Origin: a virus
DNA: 41,001 nt
Reading direction: 5' to 3' (one strand)
IMG/VR virus record: IMGVR_UViG_3300022837_000003
In this document: positions 4,132 through 41,001 of the stretch, piece after piece
How the letters are laid out: every line of letters begins with the position of its first letter
Numbering within the stretch: position 1 is the first letter of the stretch
The notes under the pieces: model-generated
Told to the model about the DNA's origin: nothing
The model's input: the letters and a program-made list of their open reading frames with translations, nothing else
The model's database searches: none
Made by a program: the position numbers and the translations under genes

Positions 4132-4373
4132 TGGCTAGAAAAAAAGCTAATCCAGTACAGATGTATACAGAGCAAACAACTGGAGTTAGGCTTTCAAGCC
4201 ATGAGAAACTTTGTGCTGAACGAATGAATAACATTCTCAAATCTATAGAAGAAATGAGAAAAGAAATTAAATCTTTAAGAACAGATGTTGCTATGGGCAA
4301 AGGGGGACTTAGAGTTATATTGACTATAGGAACATTAATAGTTGGACTGATAGGTTATTTCAACTTTAGATAA
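4131..4373 (+). CDS. Small membrane protein (80 aa), holin candidate at the T7 gp17.5 position
   Basis: I prefer ATG 4131, which overlaps the upstream stop as TAATG, over the track start 4101. The protein has a basic N-terminus (MARKKANP), a coiled segment and one C-terminal TM helix (LRVILTIGTLIVGLIGYFNF). It lies directly after the fibre genes. Confidence 0.55.
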   Translation: MARKKANPVQMYTEQTTGVRLSSHEKLCAERMNNILKSIEEMRKEIKSLRTDVAMGKGGLRVILTIGTLIVGLIGYFNFR

Positions 4374-4600
4374 TGGTTTTTAAATACGTGTTAATACTGC
4401 ATTTGTGTTCATTTGCAGGACAACCTCAATGTTACAATCCTAAAGTAGTGCCTTTAGAGTTTGACACACATTACGATTGTATCCAACAAGGATACCTTAA
4501 AGCATCACAAGCAGTAGAGAATATAGGAACAGATTTAGTTAACAAACAAAAACTTGCAGTCAAATTTGAATGCACAGAATTAACACAGGAGAAAGTATGA
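4373..4600 (+). CDS. Small secreted/membrane-anchored Cys-containing protein (75 aa)
   Basis: Its ATG overlaps the upstream stop. The N-terminus is hydrophobic (MVFKYVLILHLCSFAG) and the protein has five Cys. No canonical lipobox. Confidence 0.5.
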   Translation: MVFKYVLILHLCSFAGQPQCYNPKVVPLEFDTHYDCIQQGYLKASQAVENIGTDLVNKQKLAVKFECTELTQEKV

Positions 4601-4719
4601 TAATATACGGAAACACACCAGGTATGTGGATAAACAGAATTAAAACATCAATTAAAAATACAGATAAAAGAATTATAGCTTTATTTATAATTTGGTCGCT
4701 ATTTATGTGGATAATGTAA
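4597..4719 (+). CDS. Micro-ORF (40 aa) with a C-terminal TM segment
   Basis: Below the track cutoff. It shares an ATGA overlap with stop 4598-4600, and its TAA is immediately followed by ATG 4720. Sequence: MIIYGNTPGMWINRIKTSIKNTDKRIIALFIIWSLFMWIM. Confidence 0.35.
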   Translation: MIIYGNTPGMWINRIKTSIKNTDKRIIALFIIWSLFMWIM

Positions 4720-6238: not shown

Positions 6239-7904
6239 AATAATACCTAATGTAGAACCTAGTGTTAAAAACTTTAAGAATTTTTTATATCTAGCCTGGA
6301 AGCATTTAGCTTTACCAGAGCCTACAGAAATACAATACGACATAGCGGACTTCTTACAAGAGCCAAACAAAAGAATAGTTATAGAAGCGTTTAGAGGAGT
6401 AGGTAAATCGTGGATTACTTCAGCATTCGTATGTCATCAACTTTTACTTAACCCTCAAAGAAACATTCTCGTAGTATCAGCAAGTAAAAACAGAGCTGAT
6501 GACTTTAGCACATTTACACAAAGATTAATTTCTGAAATGCCTATACTTAAACATCTAACTCCTAGGGATGACCAACGTCACTCTAAGATTAGTTTTGATG
6601 TAGCACCCGCAAGAGCTTCTCACGCTCCCTCAGTGAAATCTCTAGGTGTAACATCACAGTTAACAGGTAGTAGAGCAGATTTAATTATCGCTGATGACGT
6701 AGAGTCAGCTAATAACTCACAGACTCAATTAATGAGAGATAGACTAGGTGAGACAGTAAAAGAATTTGATGCAATTATTAAACCCGAAGTAGGACGTATA
6801 GTTTTTCTAGGTACACCACAAACTGAAATGAGTTTATATAACTCTATGGAAGAGCGTGGATACAAGACAAGAATCTGGACAGCTCTATATCCAACTCATA
6901 TACAAAAAATAAACTTAGGTCACAAACTTGCCCCTGTAATTATAGAAAAATTAGACAAAGATAAAAAATTAGAAGGTAAACCCACAGACCCTAAAAGATT
7001 TGATGAGATAGACTTAATGGAAAGAGAAGCGTCTTACGGACGTTCAGGTTTTCAATTACAGTTTATGTTAGATACAACTTTAAGTGACTTAGAGAAGTAT
7101 CCATTAAAACTTAATGACTTAATATGTGTATCTGGGTTGTCTTCATGGAAAGAAGCACCTGCTAAGATACAATGGGCAAGTGGAATAGACCAAATTAAGA
7201 ATATAGATAGTGAATTACCAAATGTAGGCCTAAAAGGTGACTATTGGGTAAGCCCTATGTATACAAGTCCAGAACATGCTAAATTTGAAGGCTCAGTAAT
7301 GTCTATTGACCCCTCTGGTAGAGGTGCTGATATGACAGGGTACTCTGTGGTCAAGATGTTGCATGGAGTCCTTTATTTGACTCACTGTGGAGCTTTAAAG
7401 GGTGGTTATAGTGATGAGACACTAGAGAGACTTAGCCAGATAGCTAAAGAACAAGATGTTAACTATGTGGTTATTGAGAGTAACTTTGGTGATGGTATGG
7501 CTACAGCTTTACTTAAACCTGTAATGTCTCGTATACATCCATGTACTATTGAAGAAGTAAGACATTCTAAACAAAAAGAACTACGTATCATTGACACACT
7601 TGAGCCAGTTATGAACCAACACAGATTAGTGGTTTCTCAAGAAATGATTAAAGAAGATATTAAGTTAGAACCTGACCATCAGTTATTTAAGCAGATGACA
7701 AGGATAACTAAAGATAAAGGGGCCATTAAACACGATGATGCCTTGGATGCTTTAGCTATTGCAGTAGCTTATTGGATTGAGAGAATGGATAGAGACCAAG
7801 AATTGTCATTTAAAGAACATAAAAACGACTTATTACAGGTAGAACTTGATAAGTTCATGGATAGTGCATTAGGTAGTAAGAATAGGAGTAGTAGGTGGAT
7901 TTAA
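6228..7904 (+). CDS. Terminase large subunit (T7 gp19-like), 558 aa
   Basis: Family-typical motifs are present: LALPEPTEIQYDIADFL, Walker A-like FRGVGKSW, Walker B LIIADDVE, and nuclease motifs SIDPSGRGAD and HDDALDALA. Confidence 0.9.
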   Translation: MKNKIIPNVEPSVKNFKNFLYLAWKHLALPEPTEIQYDIADFLQEPNKRIVIEAFRGVGKSWITSAFVCHQLLLNPQRNILVVSASKNRADDFSTFTQRLISEMPILKHLTPRDDQRHSKISFDVAPARASHAPSVKSLGVTSQLTGSRADLIIADDVESANNSQTQLMRDRLGETVKEFDAIIKPEVGRIVFLGTPQTEMSLYNSMEERGYKTRIWTALYPTHIQKINLGHKLAPVIIEKLDKDKKLEGKPTDPKRFDEIDLMEREASYGRSGFQLQFMLDTTLSDLEKYPLKLNDLICVSGLSSWKEAPAKIQWASGIDQIKNIDSELPNVGLKGDYWVSPMYTSPEHAKFEGSVMSIDPSGRGADMTGYSVVKMLHGVLYLTHCGALKGGYSDETLERLSQIAKEQDVNYVVIESNFGDGMATALLKPVMSRIHPCTIEEVRHSKQKELRIIDTLEPVMNQHRLVVSQEMIKEDIKLEPDHQLFKQMTRITKDKGAIKHDDALDALAIAVAYWIERMDRDQELSFKEHKNDLLQVELDKFMDSALGSKNRSSRWI

Positions 7905-7906
7905 TA

Positions 7907-7926
7907 GGTACCCTTATTAGAACCAG
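7907..7926 (+). promoter_or_regulatory. Putative phage-RNAP promoter, copy 1 (phiOR-like position after terminase)
   Basis: GGTACCCTTATTAGAACCAG belongs to the five-copy motif (G/A)(T/G)ACCCC-N-TATTAGAA(C/G)(C/G). Over 7907-7940 it resembles 13085-13117 (GGTACCC(C)TATTAGAACCA..GGGGCTA(A/G)ATGTC). Confidence 0.45.
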
Positions 7927-7983: not shown

Positions 7984-8020
7984 AAGGAGACTATATGTTA
8001 CCTAAGGAGACTATATGTTA
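7984..8020 (+). repeat. Tandem direct repeat, 2 x AAGGAGACTATATGTTA (20-bp period)
   Basis: Exact 17-mers lie at 7984-8000 and 8004-8020 in the non-coding region after terminase. Confidence 0.9.
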
Positions 8021-8280
8021 ATTGAAGTACTACTATTGGGTTACTTACCCCTTATTATCTTACGCAAAGCCATACATTTTGGTAGAAAAATCCGACAGGG
8101 TATCACTATACTAGGCGCGGCCTGACGCCCCCGTAGGCCTCTTTGTTCTTCTTTTGTTCTCCTCTTTTATTAAGGTTTCAATCGGTTGTTATAACCGTTG
8201 CTTTAGTTCTCTTTTTGTTTTTTAAATGTTTTATGCTTCTCTTTCTAGTGGGGCCTATTTTTTTTCATGAGTCTTTAAAC

Positions 8281-8512
8281 TTAGAGACAACACCAGGCAA
8301 CACCAGGCAACACCAGGCAACACCAGGCAACGCCAGGCAACCAGGGGCCACAACCTAACGCCAGGCAACCAGGGCAACACCAGGCAACATAGAGACAACC
8401 ACGGGCAACCAGGGGCCACAACCTAAGGCAACACGCCAGGCAACATAGAGACAACGCCAGGGCCAGGCTCAATAGATATAAAGACAAGAGCCGCCAGGCC
8501 ACGCCAGGCAAC
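8281..8512 (+). repeat. GC-rich, almost T-free short-repeat array (CCAGGCAA units); candidate genome-terminus / packaging repeats
   Basis: There are nine exact CCAGGCAA copies. Five sit at a strict 10-bp spacing (8293-8340) and the others start at 8361, 8380, 8436 and 8504, with degenerate units (CCAGGGCAA, CCACGGGCAA) in between. Higher-order duplicates are CAACCAGGGGCCACAACCTAA x2 and CAACATAGAGACAAC x2. The array sits between the terminase gene and the early genes. Confidence 0.9.
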
Positions 8513-9663: not shown

Positions 9664-10215
9664 ATGCAAACAAACACAATTAAAAAAGATGAGTTGAGCA
9701 AAGTTGATAAAGTTGAAAAATCTAAAATCTATGTTGCTTGCTTATCTTCTTATAATTCTGGAATACTGTCCGGCGCATGGATTGAACCAAAGACAGACAA
9801 AGACGCACTAGAAGCACAGATTGCGGAAGTTCTTAAAGCGTCACCGGCCCCAGACGCCGAAGAGTACGCAATTCACGACTATGACAACTTTCCTAATTTA
9901 GGAGAATATCCAGATTTAGAAAAAGTAATTGAAGTTGTTGAAGCAATTAAATTGCACGGAGTGAAAGCTGTTGAAGGCTTCATTGAACATTGGTCAGTTG
10001 AAGACCTTGAACATTTTGAAGACGCTTTTCACGGTACTTATGACACCTTCAAAGAGTTTGCCGAAGATTACGCCGAAGATTGTATTCTTGTTGACTGTCC
10101 AGAGCATATTAAAAACTACATTGATTATAAGCAAATAGAACACGAATTGACATTTGATTATATGGAATGCAAGGCGGACGGCTACAAAGTTCATATCTTT
10201 AATAAAAATTGGTAA
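9664..10215 (+). CDS. ardA: ArdA-family anti-restriction protein (DNA mimic), 183 aa
   Basis: The N-terminal IYVACLSSYNSGILSGAWIEP...EEYAIHDYDNFPNLGEY matches the ArdA family hallmark as I recall it. The protein is very D/E-rich. It occupies an early-gene position analogous to T7 gene 0.3 (Ocr). Confidence 0.8.
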   Translation: MQTNTIKKDELSKVDKVEKSKIYVACLSSYNSGILSGAWIEPKTDKDALEAQIAEVLKASPAPDAEEYAIHDYDNFPNLGEYPDLEKVIEVVEAIKLHGVKAVEGFIEHWSVEDLEHFEDAFHGTYDTFKEFAEDYAEDCILVDCPEHIKNYIDYKQIEHELTFDYMECKADGYKVHIFNKNW

Positions 10216-10311: not shown

Positions 10312-10701
10312 ATGCTACAAAATGAAATCAAGCAATTCACGATTCTCGGAAAAGATGTAATAAATTGTAAATATGAGCCTACAAACAAGGGTAAGCAATA
10401 TTTTACTTTCAAACCTTTAAGCGGTGTATCAAACAAAAAGAAATTTTTTGATGACCTTTTTAATTGGTTTGAAGTTTTTGTACCTAGTAAAGACGCTGAA
10501 AAAATACAATTCAAATTACAAACTTGTAATTATAATATAAATAATAATAAGGTTTCAATTTTAAGTTTATTAAAAAACCTTAAAAAGCTGAAAGCACATC
10601 ATTTCAATGATTGGGACTTGCATGAGTTTCTAGGCGGTGATGAGTTTTATATCTATTTGATGGCAAACAGTAACGTAGTAGAGTTTCCATTAAAAAACTA
10701 A
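10312..10701 (+). CDS. Early hypothetical protein (129 aa)
   Basis: Good RBS (GAGGAG) and co-directional with its neighbours. No recognisable motif. Confidence 0.6.
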   Translation: MLQNEIKQFTILGKDVINCKYEPTNKGKQYFTFKPLSGVSNKKKFFDDLFNWFEVFVPSKDAEKIQFKLQTCNYNINNNKVSILSLLKNLKKLKAHHFNDWDLHEFLGGDEFYIYLMANSNVVEFPLKN

Positions 10702-10782: not shown

Positions 10783-10865
10783 TAGGGGCGACCTCTTTTA
10801 CTAGGGGCGAGAATGTAGGGGCGACTAGGGGCGACCTTGTTTTTACTAGGGGCGACTAGGGGCGA
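10783..10865 (+). repeat. Iteron-like array: 6 direct copies of TAGGGGCGA
   Basis: Copies start at 10783, 10802, 10816, 10826, 10847 and 10857, all in the same orientation. Two are head-to-tail doublets at 10-bp spacing. The array is a GC-rich island in AT-rich DNA. Confidence 0.9.
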
Positions 10866-10895: not shown

Positions 10896-11048
10896 ATGAA
10901 TAATGCAATAAATAAAGATAAGCCAAAAGATGAGACTACACAAAATGAAGATACTTTATTAGACAACCTAGGGCTGTCTCGGGATGACTTGGACGACAGC
11001 GGAGATATGCTAGAGGAATTAAAAGAAATTATGGGTTTTGACGAATAA
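10896..11048 (+). CDS. Micro-ORF, 50-aa highly acidic protein
   Basis: Below the track cutoff. The leader ACAGAAAAGGAAACT-ATG belongs to the early-gene leader family. Sequence: MNNAINKDKPKDETTQNEDTLLDNLGLSRDDLDDSGDMLEELKEIMGFDE. Confidence 0.5.
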   Translation: MNNAINKDKPKDETTQNEDTLLDNLGLSRDDLDDSGDMLEELKEIMGFDE

Positions 11049-11141
11049 AGAAATTAAAAGAACAAAATAAGAACAAAGTTCTTGCTTTATAATTCTATTT
11101 AACATAACCTTAATTATATGCAAATTAGGGTTATTCTCTGT

Positions 11142-11150
11142 TGTTATACT
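11142..11150 (+). promoter_or_regulatory. Candidate extended -10 host-type promoter element (TGTTATACT)
   Basis: It fits the TGnTATACT pattern but has no convincing -35. It lies about 50 nt upstream of the second TAGGGGCGA doublet. Confidence 0.2.
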
Positions 11151-11197
11151 AAATTACTAGAGAAAATAATTCCAGATTACTAAAATTCGTAAGACTC

Positions 11198-11216
11198 TAG
11201 GGGCGACTAGGGGCGA
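11198..11216 (+). repeat. Iteron-like doublet: 2 further copies of TAGGGGCGA at 10-bp spacing
   Basis: Copies at 11198-11206 and 11208-11216 have the same orientation as the 10783-10865 array. Confidence 0.9.
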
Positions 11217-11251
11217 ATACTATTATCAATCATTAACAAGAAAGGAGGCTA

Positions 11252-11329
11252 ATGAAAAATATACATTTAACTCAACAAGCGTGTAATAAATTACGTTTTA
11301 TGGCTACGACTCTTTTACCAATCAATTAA
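11252..11329 (+). CDS. Micro-ORF (25 aa)
   Basis: A strong RBS (AAAGGAGG) lies 4 nt upstream. Sequence: MKNIHLTQQACNKLRFMATTLLPIN. It may be a leader peptide or spurious. Confidence 0.25.
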   Translation: MKNIHLTQQACNKLRFMATTLLPIN

Positions 11330-11345
11330 GTAACCAAGGAGTACT

Positions 11346-11474
11346 ATGAGAATCAATTTTATTCTTTGTCAGCTTTTCATTGAAAAATGGGAAAGTTGGA
11401 GTAAACTTAAATTTAGCCGTGAGAATGGAGAAATCATTTTAGACATCGCATATTGGCGTGTTTATCTGCGATAA
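11346..11474 (+). CDS. Micro-ORF (42 aa)
   Basis: RBS AAGGAG. Sequence: MRINFILCQLFIEKWESWSKLKFSRENGEIILDIAYWRVYLR. Confidence 0.3.
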   Translation: MRINFILCQLFIEKWESWSKLKFSRENGEIILDIAYWRVYLR

Positions 11475-11538
11475 TTTCCACGGTTGATTAGGTGTGAATT
11501 TAGGTTATTTACCGTACCGAAACACTAAACAAATAACC

Positions 11539-11575
11539 AAGAGAGTGTCTGTCTTCTCTCTTCAATCAAAAGACA
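11539..11575 (+). promoter_or_regulatory. Potential H-type pseudoknot / alternative hairpins just upstream of the regulator gene's RBS
   Basis: S1 pairs 11539-11545 with 11556-11562 (AAGAGAG/CTCTCTT). S2 pairs 11550-11555 with 11570-11575 (TGTCTT/AAGACA). The SD AGGAG lies at 11579-11583. Confidence 0.3.
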
Positions 11576-11588
11576 TTTAGGAGTACAA

Positions 11589-11921
11589 ATGAGCGGACTT
11601 AAAATGTTATCAGCGATACAGAAATTTCGAAAGTATGACGCTGACATACAAAGTCAAACAATCGCAATTTTTCTTTATGTTGCAATACATAGTCAGGGAA
11701 AATTTGCTGATACGGGAGTACCAATGACAGCTATTGCAGATGACTTAGACATGGCTCAGTCAAGTGTAAGTCGTAACGTTTCAATACTTGCAAAGTGGAA
11801 GTGGAATAGAAGCGAAGGGTTAAATTTTGTGGAAACAAGAGAAGACCCTATGGAACGTAGAAGAAAATTAGTTAGTCTAACAAATCGTGGGAAACGTCTT
11901 TATGATTCTGTTAACAACTAA
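11589..11921 (+). CDS. MarR-like winged-helix transcriptional regulator (110 aa), candidate lysogeny regulator
   Basis: The HTH-like segment is MTAIADDLDMAQSSVSRNVSIL. The wing region REDPMERRRKLVSLTNRGKRLY is typical of MarR-family proteins. The gene lies directly upstream of the integrase. Confidence 0.65.
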   Translation: MSGLKMLSAIQKFRKYDADIQSQTIAIFLYVAIHSQGKFADTGVPMTAIADDLDMAQSSVSRNVSILAKWKWNRSEGLNFVETREDPMERRRKLVSLTNRGKRLYDSVNN

Positions 11922-11961
11922 TCAACCTTATAGCTTTAAGGTATGGAAAGGAGGTATATAC

Positions 11962-12861
11962 ATGAAGAAAGCTAATCCAAAAGAACTTCGGCAAGTTTTT
12001 AATAGAGTCTGCAAAATGCGATGGGACGAAGGCAAAGATGAGAGTGTCATCGGCCGTGGACTTAAAGTTATTGAATACTTTAAAGAAGATACTTTTATAA
12101 ATGACATTGATGAAAATGATATAGACGGTCTGGTTGAACATTTAAGAAATAGAAATCTTAAAAATGGTTCGATTAATAGATACTTGTCTGCTTTATCTAC
12201 GATGTTAACATTCTGTCAGCAACGATGGAGTGTTTACAAATTAGAACGAAAGCCATTTATCACCTGGTTAAAAGAACCTAGTCATGAGTTAAGGTACTTG
12301 TCGGATAAAGAACAGCAAACTTTAATTAGTTTGTTTACGGAATGGGGTATGGATGATGAGCGAGATTTTTTTCTATTGTTAATGGATATAGGATGTCGTT
12401 TGTCTGAACTACAACGGTTAAAAGTTAGTCAAGTGTTTGGTGATAGAGTCACTTTATACGACACTAAGAATAATGAACCGAGAGGCGTACCCTTGACTGC
12501 TAGAGCGCAGAAAATTATAAAACGTTTTTGTTTAGATAAAAGACCTGAACAAAAATTGTTTAGTGATTTTCCAAAATGGAGACCAAACTCTGCGTGGCGT
12601 AAGCTACGTAAAGCAATGGGCCTACAAGGCGATGCACGTTTTACAATACATGCTTGTCGTAGAACATTGATTTCCAATTTGATTAACAATGGTGTTCCAG
12701 AAAAGTTTACTCAAGAATGGGTGGGCCACAGTGACCCACGTATGATTGGTAAGTACGCTAGAATTTTAAGTGTGAACTTAAAAAACTACGTAAATGTTCT
12801 TGAACCCACTACTGGGATTGAAGCAACGGACGAAGACAAACCGTTGTTAAAAACCTCTTAG
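11962..12861 (+). CDS. int: Tyrosine recombinase / phage integrase (299 aa)
   Basis: I prefer ATG 11962 (RBS GGAAAGGAGG) over track start 11887. Catalytic-motif candidates are GCRLSEL (Arg box), HACRRTLISNL (HxxR) and GHSDPRMIGKYARI (Tyr). Confidence 0.85.
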   Translation: MKKANPKELRQVFNRVCKMRWDEGKDESVIGRGLKVIEYFKEDTFINDIDENDIDGLVEHLRNRNLKNGSINRYLSALSTMLTFCQQRWSVYKLERKPFITWLKEPSHELRYLSDKEQQTLISLFTEWGMDDERDFFLLLMDIGCRLSELQRLKVSQVFGDRVTLYDTKNNEPRGVPLTARAQKIIKRFCLDKRPEQKLFSDFPKWRPNSAWRKLRKAMGLQGDARFTIHACRRTLISNLINNGVPEKFTQEWVGHSDPRMIGKYARILSVNLKNYVNVLEPTTGIEATDEDKPLLKTS

Positions 12862-12923
12862 CGGGTTAAAATAAAGTTGGATTAGCGTTGTAAGTTGTAG
12901 TAAACCATCGGAATGATATCTAT

Positions 12924-12965
12924 GCGCTCTTAGCTCAGTTGGATAGAGCATCGGTTTTCTAAACC
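12924..12965 (+). other. attP core candidate: 5' half of a tRNA-Arg(UCU)-like sequence (not a complete tRNA)
   Basis: GCGCTCT-TA-GCTCAGTTGGATAGAGC-A-TCGGT-TTTCTAA-ACC reads as acceptor 5' strand, D-arm, anticodon stem 5' strand, loop with anticodon TCT, and 3 nt of return strand, after which the similarity stops. No T-arm follows. ACCATCGGA occurs on both sides (12904-12912 and 12983-12991). Confidence 0.6.
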
Positions 12966-13063
12966 CTAGGTATCTAAAGCCCACCATCGGACTGTTTCGA
13001 TTACTATTAAGGTATACCAACACAACAACGCTATCCAACACACATAAAAATTTTTAAGTTCAC

Positions 13064-13103
13064 CAACCCACTAAAGAGATGATTGGTACCCCTATTAGAA
13101 CCA
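13064..13103 (+). promoter_or_regulatory. 40-bp element: T3-like box CAACCCACTAAAGAG plus putative phage promoter copy 2, upstream of the RNAP gene
   Basis: CAACCCACTAAAGAGATGATTGGTACCCCTATTAGAACCA is 37/40 identical to 15595-15634. Confidence 0.5.
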
Positions 13104-13144
13104 AGGGGCTAAATGTCTACCTAACTAACTAAAGGAAATACACT

Positions 13145-15592
13145 ATGGATAATACAAAAGGAATTACTTTACCGTTCTCTATTCTCAAAGAACAACTAGA
13201 CCTGGAGAAGGATATGAGAGACCGAGGAATAAACAGGTTTAGAAAAAGGTTATTAGAACACAAGCAGAGAGGTGAGGAGTCTTTTACTAATTATGGTAAG
13301 ACTCTCTTATCAAACTCAATCAGACCCTTCTCAGAAGGTATAAAGGCCTATTGTGAGGAAGGTCACAAAATCCCAGGAGTTCAACCAATATCTAGAAAAC
13401 TACTATCTTTATTAGAACCAGACACAATGGCTTTGATAGCTTCAAAGTCTATTATTAACTGTATTACTATTTCTAGAAGACTAACAAGTGCTGCTATAAA
13501 TGTAGCAAGTAAAGTGGAAGATGAAATATCTCTTAGGGTATTTGAAGAAAGTAAACCTGAACACTATGGAGTTGTTAAAGCTGATTTAGAAGGTCGTTCA
13601 GCGGGCTACCAATACAAGAGACGTAAATTAAGAGAATCAGCACAAAAAAATAACATTGAGTGGGCACAGTGGACAAGAAGCGAAAAAGTTCATGTAGGTT
13701 ACAAACTTATAGAATTAATGTGTGTTCATACTGGACTTTGCGACATTCAAACTGTGTTTATTAAAAAACGTAGAGAAAAGAAATTAATACCAACAGCAAA
13801 AACTTTAGAATGGATTAATAGTAGAAATGATTTTCTAGAAGTTCTTGCTCCAGAATATTTTCCAACTATCGTTGCGCCAAGACGTTGGGAGGAAGGTAGT
13901 ACAAAAGGTGGTGGTTATTACTCAAGACATATCAAACCATTAACCTTAGTTAAATATCGTAATAGAAAAAACTTAGCTGATTTAGAAAATGTAAAAATGC
14001 CTTTAGTTTATAAAGCTGTAAATGCACAACAAGATACACCTTATAAAATAAATTTATTTATCTTGAATGTTTTAGATAAAGCCTGGGAGAAAAATATTGC
14101 TCTTGGTGGTTTACCTTTAGCTGAACTTATGGACTTACCAAGTAAGCCCCATGATATTGAGACTAATAAAATAGCAAGACAGCTATTTAGAATAGAGTCT
14201 GTAAAAATACATACTGATAATGCTAGACAGAAATCAAAAAGATTATTGTTTGCAAAAGTTAGATGGATGGCACACATGATTAAAGAAAAAATATTTTATC
14301 ATGCACATACTTTAGATTTTAGGTCTAGATGTTATCAAGTTACAAATTATCTAAACATACAAGGTGTTGACTTTGCAAAAGCATTACATCTTTTAGGTAC
14401 AGGTAAAAAAATCACCAAAGAGAATAGAGGTGATTATTGGTTAGCTGTTACTGGTGCTGCATTGTTTGGTGTGGATAAAGTTACAAGAGAAGAGCAAGTT
14501 AAATGGGTTGATGATAACTTAGAAATGTTTCAAAAAATACAGGCTGACCCTTTTACAAATAGGGAGTGGGAGAATGCAGACAAACCTTTTCAATTTCTTG
14601 CATGGGCCAATGAGTGGGCTTCATTTAAAGCTGTAGGCTACGGTTATCTTAGTACTTTTATCTGTAACCAGGATGGAAGTTGTAACGGGATACAACACTA
14701 TAGTGGGATTTTAAAAAATACCAAAACAGCTAGAGCGGTTAACTTAGGTAAATCTGAAAAACCAGAAGATGTTTACACCGTGGTTAAAGACGCTGTCATT
14801 GCTAATTTAAAAATAATGACGGAAGACCCTTATGCAAAACTTTGGTTACAGTTTGGAGTAAAACGTACAACTGTAAAAAGAGCAATCATGACTAGTCCTT
14901 ACGGTTCGACTAGATATTCTTGTAGTGATTTTGTTGATGAGGATTTAGTTAAAAGAAAAGACCAGGGGGACGAACATCCATTTGGTAGCTCATCATTTCA
15001 GGCTTGCACTTTTTTATCAGGTGTTATCTGGGATAGTATGGGTGAAGTTTTATCATCTGCTAGATTAGGTATGGCGTTTTTACAAAACTGTGCAAAAGTT
15101 TTAGCTAAAGCGGGACACAGAATACGTTGGATAAATCCAGTTGGCTTTCCAGTCATTCAAGATTATCCAGAGTTTAAATCTATGAGAGTTAAAACTAGAA
15201 TGTTTGGTGAAATAATAAAACCAAGAATAAATGTTGAAACAGAGAAATACTCTGTGATTAAAGCCTCTAACGGGCTGCCACCGAATTTTATCCACTCACA
15301 AGATTCGGCACATATGATGATGGTTGTATGCAAGGCTTACGACAAAGGCATTTCTCATTTTTGTAATGTTCATGACTCTTTTGGAACATTAGCTGCGGAC
15401 TCACAAGTTCTTGCAGATACAATCAGAGAAACATTTGTAGAGTTGTATAATGATACATGTCCACTAGAGGATTTTAAATTATCTATACAACCCTCACTTA
15501 CAGAAGAGCAACGTAAAAAATTACCAACTGTTCCAGAAAAAGGTGACTTCAATATACATGAGGTTTTACAGTCTGAGTTCTTTTTTGCGTAA
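13145..15592 (+). CDS. Single-subunit DNA-directed RNA polymerase (T7 gp1-like), 815 aa
   Basis: T7-family motifs are present: PNFIHSQDSAH, HDSFGT and a C-terminal ...SEFFFA (T7 ends FAFA). Length is typical of marine T7-like phages. Confidence 0.92.
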   Translation: MDNTKGITLPFSILKEQLDLEKDMRDRGINRFRKRLLEHKQRGEESFTNYGKTLLSNSIRPFSEGIKAYCEEGHKIPGVQPISRKLLSLLEPDTMALIASKSIINCITISRRLTSAAINVASKVEDEISLRVFEESKPEHYGVVKADLEGRSAGYQYKRRKLRESAQKNNIEWAQWTRSEKVHVGYKLIELMCVHTGLCDIQTVFIKKRREKKLIPTAKTLEWINSRNDFLEVLAPEYFPTIVAPRRWEEGSTKGGGYYSRHIKPLTLVKYRNRKNLADLENVKMPLVYKAVNAQQDTPYKINLFILNVLDKAWEKNIALGGLPLAELMDLPSKPHDIETNKIARQLFRIESVKIHTDNARQKSKRLLFAKVRWMAHMIKEKIFYHAHTLDFRSRCYQVTNYLNIQGVDFAKALHLLGTGKKITKENRGDYWLAVTGAALFGVDKVTREEQVKWVDDNLEMFQKIQADPFTNREWENADKPFQFLAWANEWASFKAVGYGYLSTFICNQDGSCNGIQHYSGILKNTKTARAVNLGKSEKPEDVYTVVKDAVIANLKIMTEDPYAKLWLQFGVKRTTVKRAIMTSPYGSTRYSCSDFVDEDLVKRKDQGDEHPFGSSSFQACTFLSGVIWDSMGEVLSSARLGMAFLQNCAKVLAKAGHRIRWINPVGFPVIQDYPEFKSMRVKTRMFGEIIKPRINVETEKYSVIKASNGLPPNFIHSQDSAHMMMVVCKAYDKGISHFCNVHDSFGTLAADSQVLADTIRETFVELYNDTCPLEDFKLSIQPSLTEEQRKKLPTVPEKGDFNIHEVLQSEFFFA

Positions 15593-15594
15593 AT

Positions 15595-15634
15595 CAACCC
15601 ACTAAAGAGGTAATTAGTACCCCTATTAGAACCA
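15595..15634 (+). promoter_or_regulatory. 40-bp element: T3-like box plus putative phage promoter copy 3 (T7 phi1.1 / primary-origin position)
   Basis: CAACCCACTAAAGAGGTAATTAGTACCCCTATTAGAACCA begins 3 nt after the RNAP stop and is followed by an A-rich tract. Confidence 0.5.
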
Positions 15635-15645
15635 AAGGAATAAAT

Positions 15646-40366: not shown

Positions 40367-41001
40367 ATGGCTAATTCATTTGTAAGATATACAGGTAATG
40401 GTGCTACAACTGCTTATTCTATATCATATTCATATAGAGATGCTGCAGATTTGAGTGTCACTATCAATGGTGTCGCTACAACGTCATATACCTTAAACGG
40501 TGCAGGAAGCACATTAACTTTTGACACGGCACCCGTCAATGCGAGTTCAATCGAAATTCGTAGAAAGACTTCCCAAACTTCAAGATTAACAGATTACGCA
40601 GCAGGTTCAGTTCTTACTGAAAATGATTTAGATACAGATAGTGAACAAGCATTCTTTATGTCACAAGAAGCTATTGATGACGCAGGTGATGTTATCAAAT
40701 TATCAAATACAGATTTTCAATGGGACACTCAAAGTAAAAGATTAAAAAATGTTGCAGACCCAGTAGACAACACAGATGCAGTAAACAAACAATTCATATC
40801 CACAAACTTACCAAACATCACAACAGTATCAGGCATAAGTGCAGACGTTACAACGGTTGCAGGTATTTCAGCAGATGTAACTTCAGTTGCAAATGATGCT
40901 ACAGATATAGGTTTAGTTGCTACTAACATAGGTTCAGTAAATACAGTTGCCGCAGATATTACAAAAGTAATTGCTGTAGCTAATGATTTAGCTGAAGCAG
41001 T
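40367..41001 (+). CDS. Tail fibre protein (T7 gp17-like), N-terminal part; continues at window base 1
   Basis: RBS AAAGGAG. The N-terminal domain parallels T7 gp17 (MANSFVRYTG...IEIRRKTSQTSRLTDYAAGSVLTENDLDTD versus T7 ...IELRRVTSTTDRLVDFTDGSILRAYDLN). The ORF stays open to the window end. Confidence 0.88.
   Translation, partial: MANSFVRYTGNGATTAYSISYSYRDAADLSVTINGVATTSYTLNGAGSTLTFDTAPVNASSIEIRRKTSQTSRLTDYAAGSVLTENDLDTDSEQAFFMSQEAIDDAGDVIKLSNTDFQWDTQSKRLKNVADPVDNTDAVNKQFISTNLPNITTVSGISADVTTVAGISADVTSVANDATDIGLVATNIGSVNTVAADITKVIAVANDLAEA

Follow-up and report, generated by a model that had tools for sequence, protein, structure and literature searches.

The window (the whole 41,001-nt stretch of DNA analysed) is the circularly assembled genome of an HTVC019P-type pelagiphage, showing ~84% DNA identity to the cultured phages HTVC120P (accession MH598807), HTVC134P, HTVC309P and EXVC010P, in agreement with the T7-group affinity suggested in a preliminary description made from the sequence. 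Directly ahead of its RNA polymerase (RNAP) gene lie a gene for a small regulator, an integrase gene and a tRNA-derived attP site, and the genes for regulator, integrase and RNAP all read in one common direction (Table 1). Both the ORF coordinates and the family matches agree with the co-directional arrangement of MarR-type regulator, integrase and attP originally proposed for this region, and the set represents an intact integration/lysogeny cassette typical of temperate T7-like phages. The cassette is not new: the genes are already annotated as MarR, integrase and RNAP in the four cultured relatives, in which it has been described and partly tested.

Table 1. Features of the regulator-integrase-attP cassette and of the adjoining RNAP gene.
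Feature	Position	Strand	Basis
Conserved RNA stem, possibly a pseudoknot	11546..11583	+	Paired changes in two helices
Compact MarR-type winged-helix regulator gene, 110 aa	11589..11921	+	phrog_9665, family profile, AlphaFold, Foldseek
Tyrosine integrase gene, 299 aa	11962..12861	+	PF00589, P2 integrase alignment, catalytic residues
attP P arm, conserved non-coding block including ACCATCGGA at 12905-12913	12877..12923	+	Near-invariance across two clades
attP core, 5' part of a tRNA-Arg(TCT) gene	12924..12965	+	Rfam, alignment to E. coli tRNA-Arg, conservation
Second copy of the (A/C)CCA(T/A)CGG motif, P' arm	12981..12991	+	Conserved in both clades
Phage-RNAP-promoter-like element directly 5' of the RNAP gene, core 13082-13108	13051..13114	+	64-nt repeat
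Single-subunit T7-type RNA polymerase gene	13145..15592	+	PF00940, E 1.7e-95; phrog_414, E 1e-232
Second promoter-like copy, between the RNAP and SSB genes	15582..15645	+	64-nt repeat

The regulator had been suspected to be a MarR-like winged-helix protein, and both profile comparison and structure prediction uphold this view. The protein matches phrog_9665, 'transcriptional regulator', with an E-value of 7e-28, and the profile of its family matches a MarR structure in the PDB (2eth; E 1.9e-8). When folded with 105 homologues, AlphaFold returned a model with a pLDDT of 96.7 (the single sequence reached only 48), the best Foldseek matches of which are MarR and MepR (TM 0.6-0.72), MepR-DNA complexes among them; at least the top 40 of the PDB matches listed belong to the MarR family. 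The modelled protein is a MarR-type winged helix-turn-helix protein. Compared to Pfam as a single sequence, the regulator gave winged-helix matches below threshold only (13.5 bits for PF12802, cut-off 27), and PF12802 is matched at E < 0.001 by 55 of the 106 family members. The family comprises 690 clusters at 50% identity, and the regulator is homologous to those of phages LUZ100 (35% identity, E 4e-13) and P-SSP7 (gp0.7; E 3e-8). As in Escherichia coli MarR and Staphylococcus aureus MepR, a winged helix-turn-helix core is accompanied by flanking helices; however, with 110 aa against ~140-150 aa in canonical MarR-family repressors, the dimerisation and ligand-binding helices are shortened.

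The assignment of the adjacent 299-aa ORF to the tyrosine recombinases likewise held when its catalytic residues were checked. It matches PF00589 with 69.5 bits (cut-off 27.1; E 4e-19) and a PHROG annotated as integrase (E 1.5e-44), and its residues 14-279 align to the P2 integrase (5c6k; E 1.2e-12). Alignments to 5c6k and to the XerC-like 4a8e recover the complete catalytic set (R146, K169, H230, R233, H256 and Y265), and all six residues are invariant in 7 relatives. The SAM-like N-terminal core-binding domain PF02899 scores slightly below its cut-off (20.6 versus 22.3 bits). An alternative GTG start is present at 11887, the equivalent of which is annotated in relatives. Recombination by the 85%-identical integrase of HTVC120P has been demonstrated by junction PCR and sequencing (10.1101/410191).

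The attP core begins 63 nt past the integrase stop codon and consists of the acceptor strand, the D arm, the 5' strand of the anticodon stem, the anticodon loop and 3 nt of the return strand of a tRNA-Arg gene. ARAGORN called no tRNA at these positions and the Rfam tRNA score (24.6 bits) is under the gathering cut-off of 29; when compared with annotated E. coli tRNA-Arg genes, 39 of the 42 nt align with 87-90% identity. Across the window and the 25 relatives examined, a single T/C position of the acceptor strand is all that varies in the core: the fragments of HTVC120P, HTVC134P and S46-C10 are identical to that of the window, and those of HTVC309P and EXVC010P differ from it by one acceptor-strand position. 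Together, the Rfam match, the identity to E. coli tRNA-Arg and the conservation in relatives confirm the derivation of this attP from tRNA-Arg(UCU). In the attP alignment the clades part immediately 3' of the anticodon loop. In two clades with flanking genes diverged to 57-70% protein identity, the P arm has hardly changed, and it probably holds integrase binding sites; its motif at 12905-12913 returns as a direct repeat in the P' arm and resembles the CATCGG of the tRNA anticodon stem. In HTVC120P, the equivalent site is the experimentally mapped attP: the match of attP to a host tRNA gene has been reported, the phage integrates into tRNA-Arg and the phage-borne 5' part rebuilds the tRNA (10.1101/410191). 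The same study describes an ocean read in which a pelagiphage RNAP gene is fused to the 5' end of a host tRNA-Leu gene (10.1101/410191).

A promoter-like element had been noted at 13064-13103, 3' of attP and ahead of the RNAP gene. It proved to be part of a 64-nt repeat whose two copies, on either side of the RNAP gene, are 83% identical, and its core recurs five times on the + strand (7911, 13089, 15620, 24997 and 40337), each time 5' of a gene or gene block. Allowing up to 3 mismatches, a 20-mer core motif has a chance expectation of 0.01 matches, and the core is nearly invariant in both clades. No palindromic operator common to both clades was found 5' of either the RNAP gene or the regulator gene, and no shared words stood out between these two regions. 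A TTGGTTC-N8-GAACCAA dyad lying over the promoter was considered as a conserved operator and rejected, being perfect in only some HTVC120P-like relatives (6/7 in the window, 5/7 in the second clade), with the recognition helix of the regulator invariant. The stretch from the attP core to the RNAP gene has neither a predicted terminator nor a predicted structured RNA, and fold z-scores were positive.

Upstream of the cassette, the conserved RNA stem lies just 5' of the Shine-Dalgarno sequence that serves the regulator gene. In its first helix (96% paired), 5 of the 7 pairs have changed on both sides, as have 2 pairs in its second (92% paired), and the whole stem is deleted in three relatives (L004, L008 and L031). 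A palindrome-like GAGAG/CTCTC element 5' of the regulator gene was rejected as a protein-binding site: both of its arms vary while the regulator keeps its recognition helix unchanged, which argues for an RNA structure instead. The TAGGGGCGA arrays, named at the outset as potential parts of the lysogeny switch, were tied to it by none of the results. They accompany the regulator gene on its 5' side in both close clades; however, they are not found in more distant phages with the same cassette (L025, L026 and HTVC019P), whose regulators are 50-55% identical to that of the window.

The cassette is conserved as a unit well beyond the closest relatives. Relatives with regulator identities as low as 55% and 35% still show the order regulator, integrase, gap of 250-470 bp and RNAP, which L025, L029 and HTVC019P share; all cassettes examined, even at 35% regulator identity, have the regulator gene next to the integrase gene. 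HTVC031P lacks both genes together. Both are under purifying selection, with dN/dS values of 0.12-0.16 for the regulator and 0.13-0.16 for the integrase.

With considerable confidence, we regard the window as an HTVC120P-like pelagiphage with an integration/lysogeny cassette, in which the MarR-like protein most likely represses the promoter ahead of the RNAP gene. During infection, host RNA polymerase would transcribe the early genes, including those for the regulator and the integrase, and continue into the phage RNAP gene; in HTVC022P, regulator, integrase and RNAP are indeed early genes (PMC12753301). The phage RNAP would then act on the phage-type promoter directly 5' of its gene and so boost its own synthesis. 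Recombination by the integrase between attP and the host tRNA-Arg gene would take place in or beside the anticodon loop and split the phage map between the integrase and RNAP genes, so that the RNAP gene of the prophage would no longer lie downstream of the early promoters. Its upstream neighbours would instead be the host tRNA promoter and a truncated tRNA, and the phage-borne 5' half would restore the tRNA at the opposite junction. As a dimer, the MarR-like protein would repress the promoter before the RNAP gene, and perhaps its own operon too, holding off the self-amplifying loop. Counting against this reading are the lack of a palindromic operator shared by the two clades and the lack of a predicted terminator past attP, since the host tRNA promoter could then read into the RNAP gene of a prophage. 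Repression of the RNAP promoter by a MarR-type protein has been put forward as a hypothesis for LUZ100 and other temperate T7-like phages (PMC10134795, citing Boeckman et al. 2022).

The geometry of attP raises a further, rather improbable possibility, namely that integration amounts to a reciprocal promoter swap, which would wire induction to host tRNA transcription and the host tRNA supply to phage early transcription. Since the tRNA 5' half within attP is oriented with the phage genes, the RNAP gene of the prophage would come to lie ~180 bp behind the host tRNA-Arg promoter, which, with no terminator predicted in the interval, could read into it. Were this so, the only intact copy of tRNA-Arg(UCU) would be rebuilt behind the phage regulator-integrase operon, prophage induction would be tied to growth-rate-controlled host tRNA transcription with the MarR-like protein as sole brake, and the supply of AGA-reading tRNA in the host would depend on phage early transcription. 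AGA is the expected commonest arginine codon in AT-rich genomes.

Integrated copies, expected beside a host tRNA-Arg gene according to the preliminary description, did not turn up in representative genomes, viral contigs or metagenome contigs. Alignment of the integrase against 185,579 species genomes yielded no integrated copy, the sole match being an unrelated integrase of Elusimicrobiota (24% identity). An attR pattern composed of the P arm, the 5' part of the tRNA and then ACC followed by any base but C, which is a narrow exact-pattern test confined to assembled contigs, had zero matches in viral contigs and four in metagenome contigs, all of them free-phage attP variants reading ACCA and none a junction. 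Nor has a stable SAR11 lysogen of an HTVC019P-type phage been reported in the literature. These results fit a second reading, to which we assign a smaller but appreciable likelihood: integration might be only transient and of low frequency in an essentially lytic infection, and the MarR-like protein might be an early lytic regulator, serving host take-over or setting the moment at which transcription passes from host to phage, not a lysogeny repressor. Integration that never leads to lysogens is reported for T7-like cyanophages possessing an integrase and attP (PMC8776855), and one of these phages, P-SSP7, carries the regulator homologue gp0.7; furthermore, MarR is strongly expressed early in lytic HTVC022P infection, where it was read as a take-over factor (PMC12753301). 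A purely lytic role is, however, harder to reconcile with the joint presence or absence of regulator and integrase, as illustrated by HTVC031P, with their adjacency in all cassettes examined, and with the T7-like prophages bearing the same three genes that have been reported in Pseudomonas genomes (PMC10134795).

The close linkage of the two genes could also be read in another way, the 110-aa protein being an accessory recombination factor, excisionase-like or architectural, that binds the attP arms together with the integrase and has no part in transcription control. The regulator gene stands directly 5' of the integrase gene, overlapping it in the GTG-start annotation, much like classical xis-int pairs; it is lost along with the integrase in HTVC031P; and the attP arms contain strongly conserved blocks and repeated CAWCGG motifs. 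We nevertheless deem this unlikely: every sequence or fold match is to a MarR-family transcription factor, DNA-bound repressors included, and none to an excisionase, and the resemblance of the arm motif to the anticodon-stem sequence at the crossover point fits integrase binding better. That the cassette is a non-functional, decaying remnant would also agree with the lack of integrated copies in the genomes and contigs searched, but is highly implausible given the dN/dS of 0.12-0.16 in both genes, the invariant integrase catalytic residues, an attP unchanged but for one T/C position against a synonymous divergence of 0.6-0.9 in flanking genes, and the experimentally shown integration of HTVC120P (10.1101/410191).

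True lysogeny of SAR11 by phages of this kind would bear on models of ocean virus-host dynamics, HTVC019P-type pelagiphages being among the more abundant viruses of SAR11, the most abundant marine bacterium. The window adds a further intact copy of the cassette together with comparative detail: a near-invariant attP core ending at the anticodon loop, a promoter-like motif before the RNAP gene, no predicted terminator after attP, and joint loss of regulator and integrase. It opens no question beyond those already testable in cultured HTVC120P and HTVC134P.

Among known systems, the closest are HTVC120P, HTVC134P, HTVC309P, the EXVC010P type and uvMED S46-C10, which possess the same three genes in the same order with ~85% protein identity to those of the window, and in which the promoter-like motif is likewise found before and after the RNAP gene. 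The HTVC120P-type relatives differ from the window by ~16% DNA divergence and by the block just 5' of the promoter core, which is CCCACTAAAGAG in the window and CCAGTACTGGG in those phages; early accessory genes differ as well, with ArdA in the window in place of a DNA methylase in HTVC134P and HTVC309P. The T7-like cyanophages P-SSP7 and S-TIP37 share the succession of integrase and tRNA-derived attP, and P-SSP7, through gp0.7, also the regulator family. Their target is, however, tRNA-Leu and not tRNA-Arg, and in T7-like cyanophages integration is detectable while lysogens were not obtained; a repressor homologue was not found by the authors of that study (PMC8776855). In the Pseudomonas phage LUZ100, as in the window, the regulator gene neighbours the integrase gene and reads the same way, a phage-type promoter lies directly 5' of the RNAP gene, and the logic proposed is the same, a self-amplifying RNAP loop restrained by the regulator. 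LUZ100 differs in its host, in its integration target and in possessing a terminator between the cassette and the RNAP gene, where none is predicted in the window; its transcription units, moreover, have been mapped experimentally.

The preliminary description of a MarR-type regulator gene, a tyrosine integrase gene and a tRNA-derived attP lying before the RNA polymerase (RNAP) gene was confirmed, with correct coordinates for all three genes, and its reading as a lysogeny-like module is supported. The cassette is nevertheless not new, and for a phage with 84% DNA identity even the integration target is known. The 12 HTVC019P-type pelagiphages reported by Zhao et al. (10.1101/410191; Environ Microbiol 2019) have an integrase gene before the RNAP gene, with attP in the intervening spacer. 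When compared with a phage collection (blastn), the window interval 11000-15600 was matched over 93% of its length at 82-84% identity by Pelagibacter phages HTVC120P, HTVC134P and HTVC309P, four EXVC isolates and the fosmid phage MedDCM-OCT-S46-C10. In every one of these, the annotation of the counterpart names a MarR family transcriptional regulator, an integrase and an RNA polymerase.

Features of the cassette and the adjoining RNAP gene in the window
Feature	Position	Remarks
110-aa MarR-type regulator ORF	11589-11921	
Integrase ORF	11962-12861	GGAGG ribosome site before ATG
Conserved P arm block	12877-12923	
Repeated (A/C)CCA(T/A)CGG motif	12905 and 12982	Echoes CATCGG of the anticodon stem
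tRNA-Arg fragment, attP	12924-12965	Acceptor strand, D arm, 5' anticodon stem, loop TTTCTAA (anticodon TCT), three return-strand bases
RNAP gene	13145-15592	

The record looks like a circularly closed assembly of ~40.9 kb, whose start would be arbitrary because the exact identity of bases 1-127 and 40875-41001 is most simply the k-mer overlap of such an assembly; the real termini of the genome are probably around 8000-8500. All ORFs of at least 120 aa are on the plus strand, except for two minus-strand ORFs that overlap plus-strand ones, and the gene order is that of T7, with terminase and a repeat-rich end region first, then early genes, RNAP and DNA metabolism, and lastly the structural genes. 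Between terminase and early genes, near the presumed genome end, lies a CCAGGCAAC array (8283-8512) of about a dozen units with a 10-bp period. Early gene 9664-10215 encodes an ArdA-type anti-restriction protein (PF07275, E 3.7e-31), in place of which HTVC134P and HTVC309P carry a DNA methylase, and a 129-aa early ORF (10312-10701) weakly resembles the SiaC regulatory phosphoprotein family, below threshold (PF09345, E 1.4e-4, 22 bits versus a cut-off of 24.5). The depositors of EXVC010P gave the names 'cor repressor' and 'superinfection exclusion protein' to two small early genes that precede its cassette (4242-4704).

Taken alone, the 110-aa protein gave only sub-threshold winged-helix matches in Pfam, but it strongly matches phrog_9665 'transcriptional regulator' (E 7e-28). 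An exhaustive search retrieved 690 homologue clusters, most members being 100-140 aa long; Pfam MarR_2 was matched by 55 of 106 homologues, and the profile of these 106 matches solved MarR-family structures (best 2eth, E 1.9e-8). The AlphaFold model built with the homologue alignment (pLDDT 96.7) comprises four helices, a beta wing and a C-terminal helix, and its best PDB matches in Foldseek are all MarR-family proteins, including DNA-bound MepR (TM 0.6-0.72). The proposed MarR-like winged helix is thus borne out. Canonical MarR proteins are longer by some 30-40 residues. Its recognition helix (MAQSSVSRN) and wing (DPMERRRKLV) are unchanged in two phage clades, and dN/dS is 0.12-0.16. Homologues were found by tblastn in 38 phage records; the named phages recognised among them are, we presume, all T7-like podoviruses.

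The adjacent 299-aa ORF, for which an alternative GTG start at 11887 is annotated in some relatives, is indeed a tyrosine recombinase. Its family matches are PF00589 (E 4e-19) and PHROG 'integrase' (E 1.5e-44), and residues 14-279 align to the P2 integrase structure 5c6k (E 1.2e-12). Residue alignment revealed a complete catalytic set (R146, K169, H230, R233, H256, Y265), invariant in seven relatives; dN/dS against three relatives is 0.13-0.16. Regulator and integrase genes adjoin in every cassette examined, including those of HTVC019P and of two more distant phages, L025 and L029, whose regulators are 55% and 35% identical to that of the window. Only one HTVC019P-type isolate, HTVC031P, has no integrase, and its whole genome has no MarR-like gene either; there the RNAP gene directly follows the early genes. 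This constant adjacency and joint absence support a functional link between the two proteins.

The attP candidate corresponds to the 5' part of tRNA-Arg(TCT), being 87-90% identical over 39 nt to annotated E. coli tRNA-Arg genes. ARAGORN made no tRNA call at this segment, which, lacking the 3' half of a tRNA, scores 24.6 bits in Rfam, short of the cut-off of 29. Among the window and the 25 relatives examined, the segment varies at a single acceptor-strand position (T/C). To judge from the alignment, the shared core extends rightward to the anticodon loop, where the crossover probably also lies, since immediately after the loop the window's HTVC120P-like clade and the second close pelagiphage clade part (ACC... 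versus TCAG...). The P arm block and the repeated motif, both conserved and flanking the segment, are presumably integrase binding sites. For the attB match we rely on the literature. In L025 the integrase-RNAP interval holds a tRNA-Cys(GCA)-like fragment (7305-7355, minus strand) opposite to the phage genes, whereas the fragment in the window is co-directional with them. Some 50 nt ahead of the tRNA fragment, a predicted sigma-70-like site, TTGTTA-17-TAAAAT (12844-12872), overlaps the stop codon of the integrase gene. In a prophage it could serve as promoter for the rebuilt tRNA; sites of this kind are no commoner hereabouts than in shuffled sequence.

The promoter-like element noted between attP and the RNAP gene proved to be a repeated one. 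Segment 13051-13114 recurs at 15582-15645 (83% identity), and the core CCCCTATTAGAACCAA, with TAATWRGW just before it, has five plus-strand copies: after the terminase (7911), before and after the RNAP gene (13089 and 15620), before the structural block (24997) and before a late gene (40337). A 20-mer of the element has three matches with at most 3 mismatches, against 0.01 expected by chance. The core is nearly invariant in both clades and is followed by a G run; together with the placement of the copies, this fits a promoter of the phage RNAP. Between the copies at 7911 and 13089 there is no further copy of the core, from which we infer that regulator and integrase belong to the early region transcribed by the host polymerase. 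This placement is consistent with RNA-seq of the related phage HTVC022P, in which all three genes (MarR, integrase, RNAP) count as early (PMC12753301).

Operators for the regulator were sought upstream of its gene and over the promoter before the RNAP gene, and none was identified. A TTGGTTC-N8-GAACCAA dyad over the promoter is perfect only in some HTVC120P-like relatives (6/7 in the window, 5/7 in the second clade) and was discarded. Likewise rejected was a dyad-like element upstream of the regulator gene: both its arms vary while the recognition helix of the protein is invariant, and it is therefore considered an RNA stem. This stem (GAGAG/CTCTC region, 11546-11583) lies just 5' of the Shine-Dalgarno sequence, and a second, pseudoknot-forming stem is possible; helix 1 has both-side changes in 5 of 7 pairs across 11 relatives, and the element is missing in EXVC010P and two other relatives (L008, L031). 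The TAGGGGCGA arrays, previously proposed as iterons taking part in the switch, could not be tied to it in the window, the two close clades or the more distant cassette-bearing phages compared. Eight exact copies occur in the window (10783-10865 and 11198-11216), and among the relatives compared (L001-L034) the motif occurs in both close clades on the plus strand, always gene-sense, upstream of the regulator gene, one copy often 370-480 bp before the start codon; it is absent from HTVC019P, HTVC031P, L025 and a further distant phage, L026. The sole minus-strand match to the promoter-like core falls within a TAGGGGCGA array.

Because the tRNA fragment and all phage genes are co-oriented and the integrase and RNAP genes flank attP, as is seen directly in the sequence, recombination of attP with a host tRNA gene would create two junctions. 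attL would read host promoter, host tRNA 5' part, core, P' arm, phage promoter and RNAP gene, the form represented by an ocean read joining a host tRNA-Leu 5' end to a pelagiphage RNAP gene (Zhao et al., 10.1101/410191). The rest of the prophage would end, at attR, with early genes, regulator, integrase, P arm, phage tRNA 5' part, core and host tRNA 3' part. Given this order, integration would cut the RNAP gene off from the early promoters. Since no terminator-like site is predicted in the ~180 bp from the attP core to the RNAP start codon, and the RNA of this interval folds no better than shuffled sequence, another brake on the RNAP gene would be needed in the prophage, the MarR-like protein being the obvious candidate. 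Integrated copies themselves were not found by exact matching in assembled contigs, which would miss rare junctions: the integrase scan of species-representative genomes gave an unrelated match only, an attR-specific pattern had no match in viral contigs, and its four matches in metagenome contigs were all free-phage attP variants.

The literature already asks if, and by what means, the regulator silences the RNAP loop; the question is a real one, and cultured relatives are best suited to addressing it. Zhao et al. (10.1101/410191) stated that the lysis-lysogeny decision was not understood and that lysogens had not been isolated as of then. T7-like cyanophages integrate without lysogeny (Shitrit et al., PMC8776855), and gp0.7 of P-SSP7 is homologous to the regulator described here (34%, E 3e-8, tblastn). 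Pseudomonas phage LUZ100 likewise has a homologous regulator (35% identity, E 4e-13, tblastn); for this phage Putzeys et al. (PMC10134795), citing Boeckman et al., present the proposal that the regulator represses the promoter before the RNAP gene in lysogeny.
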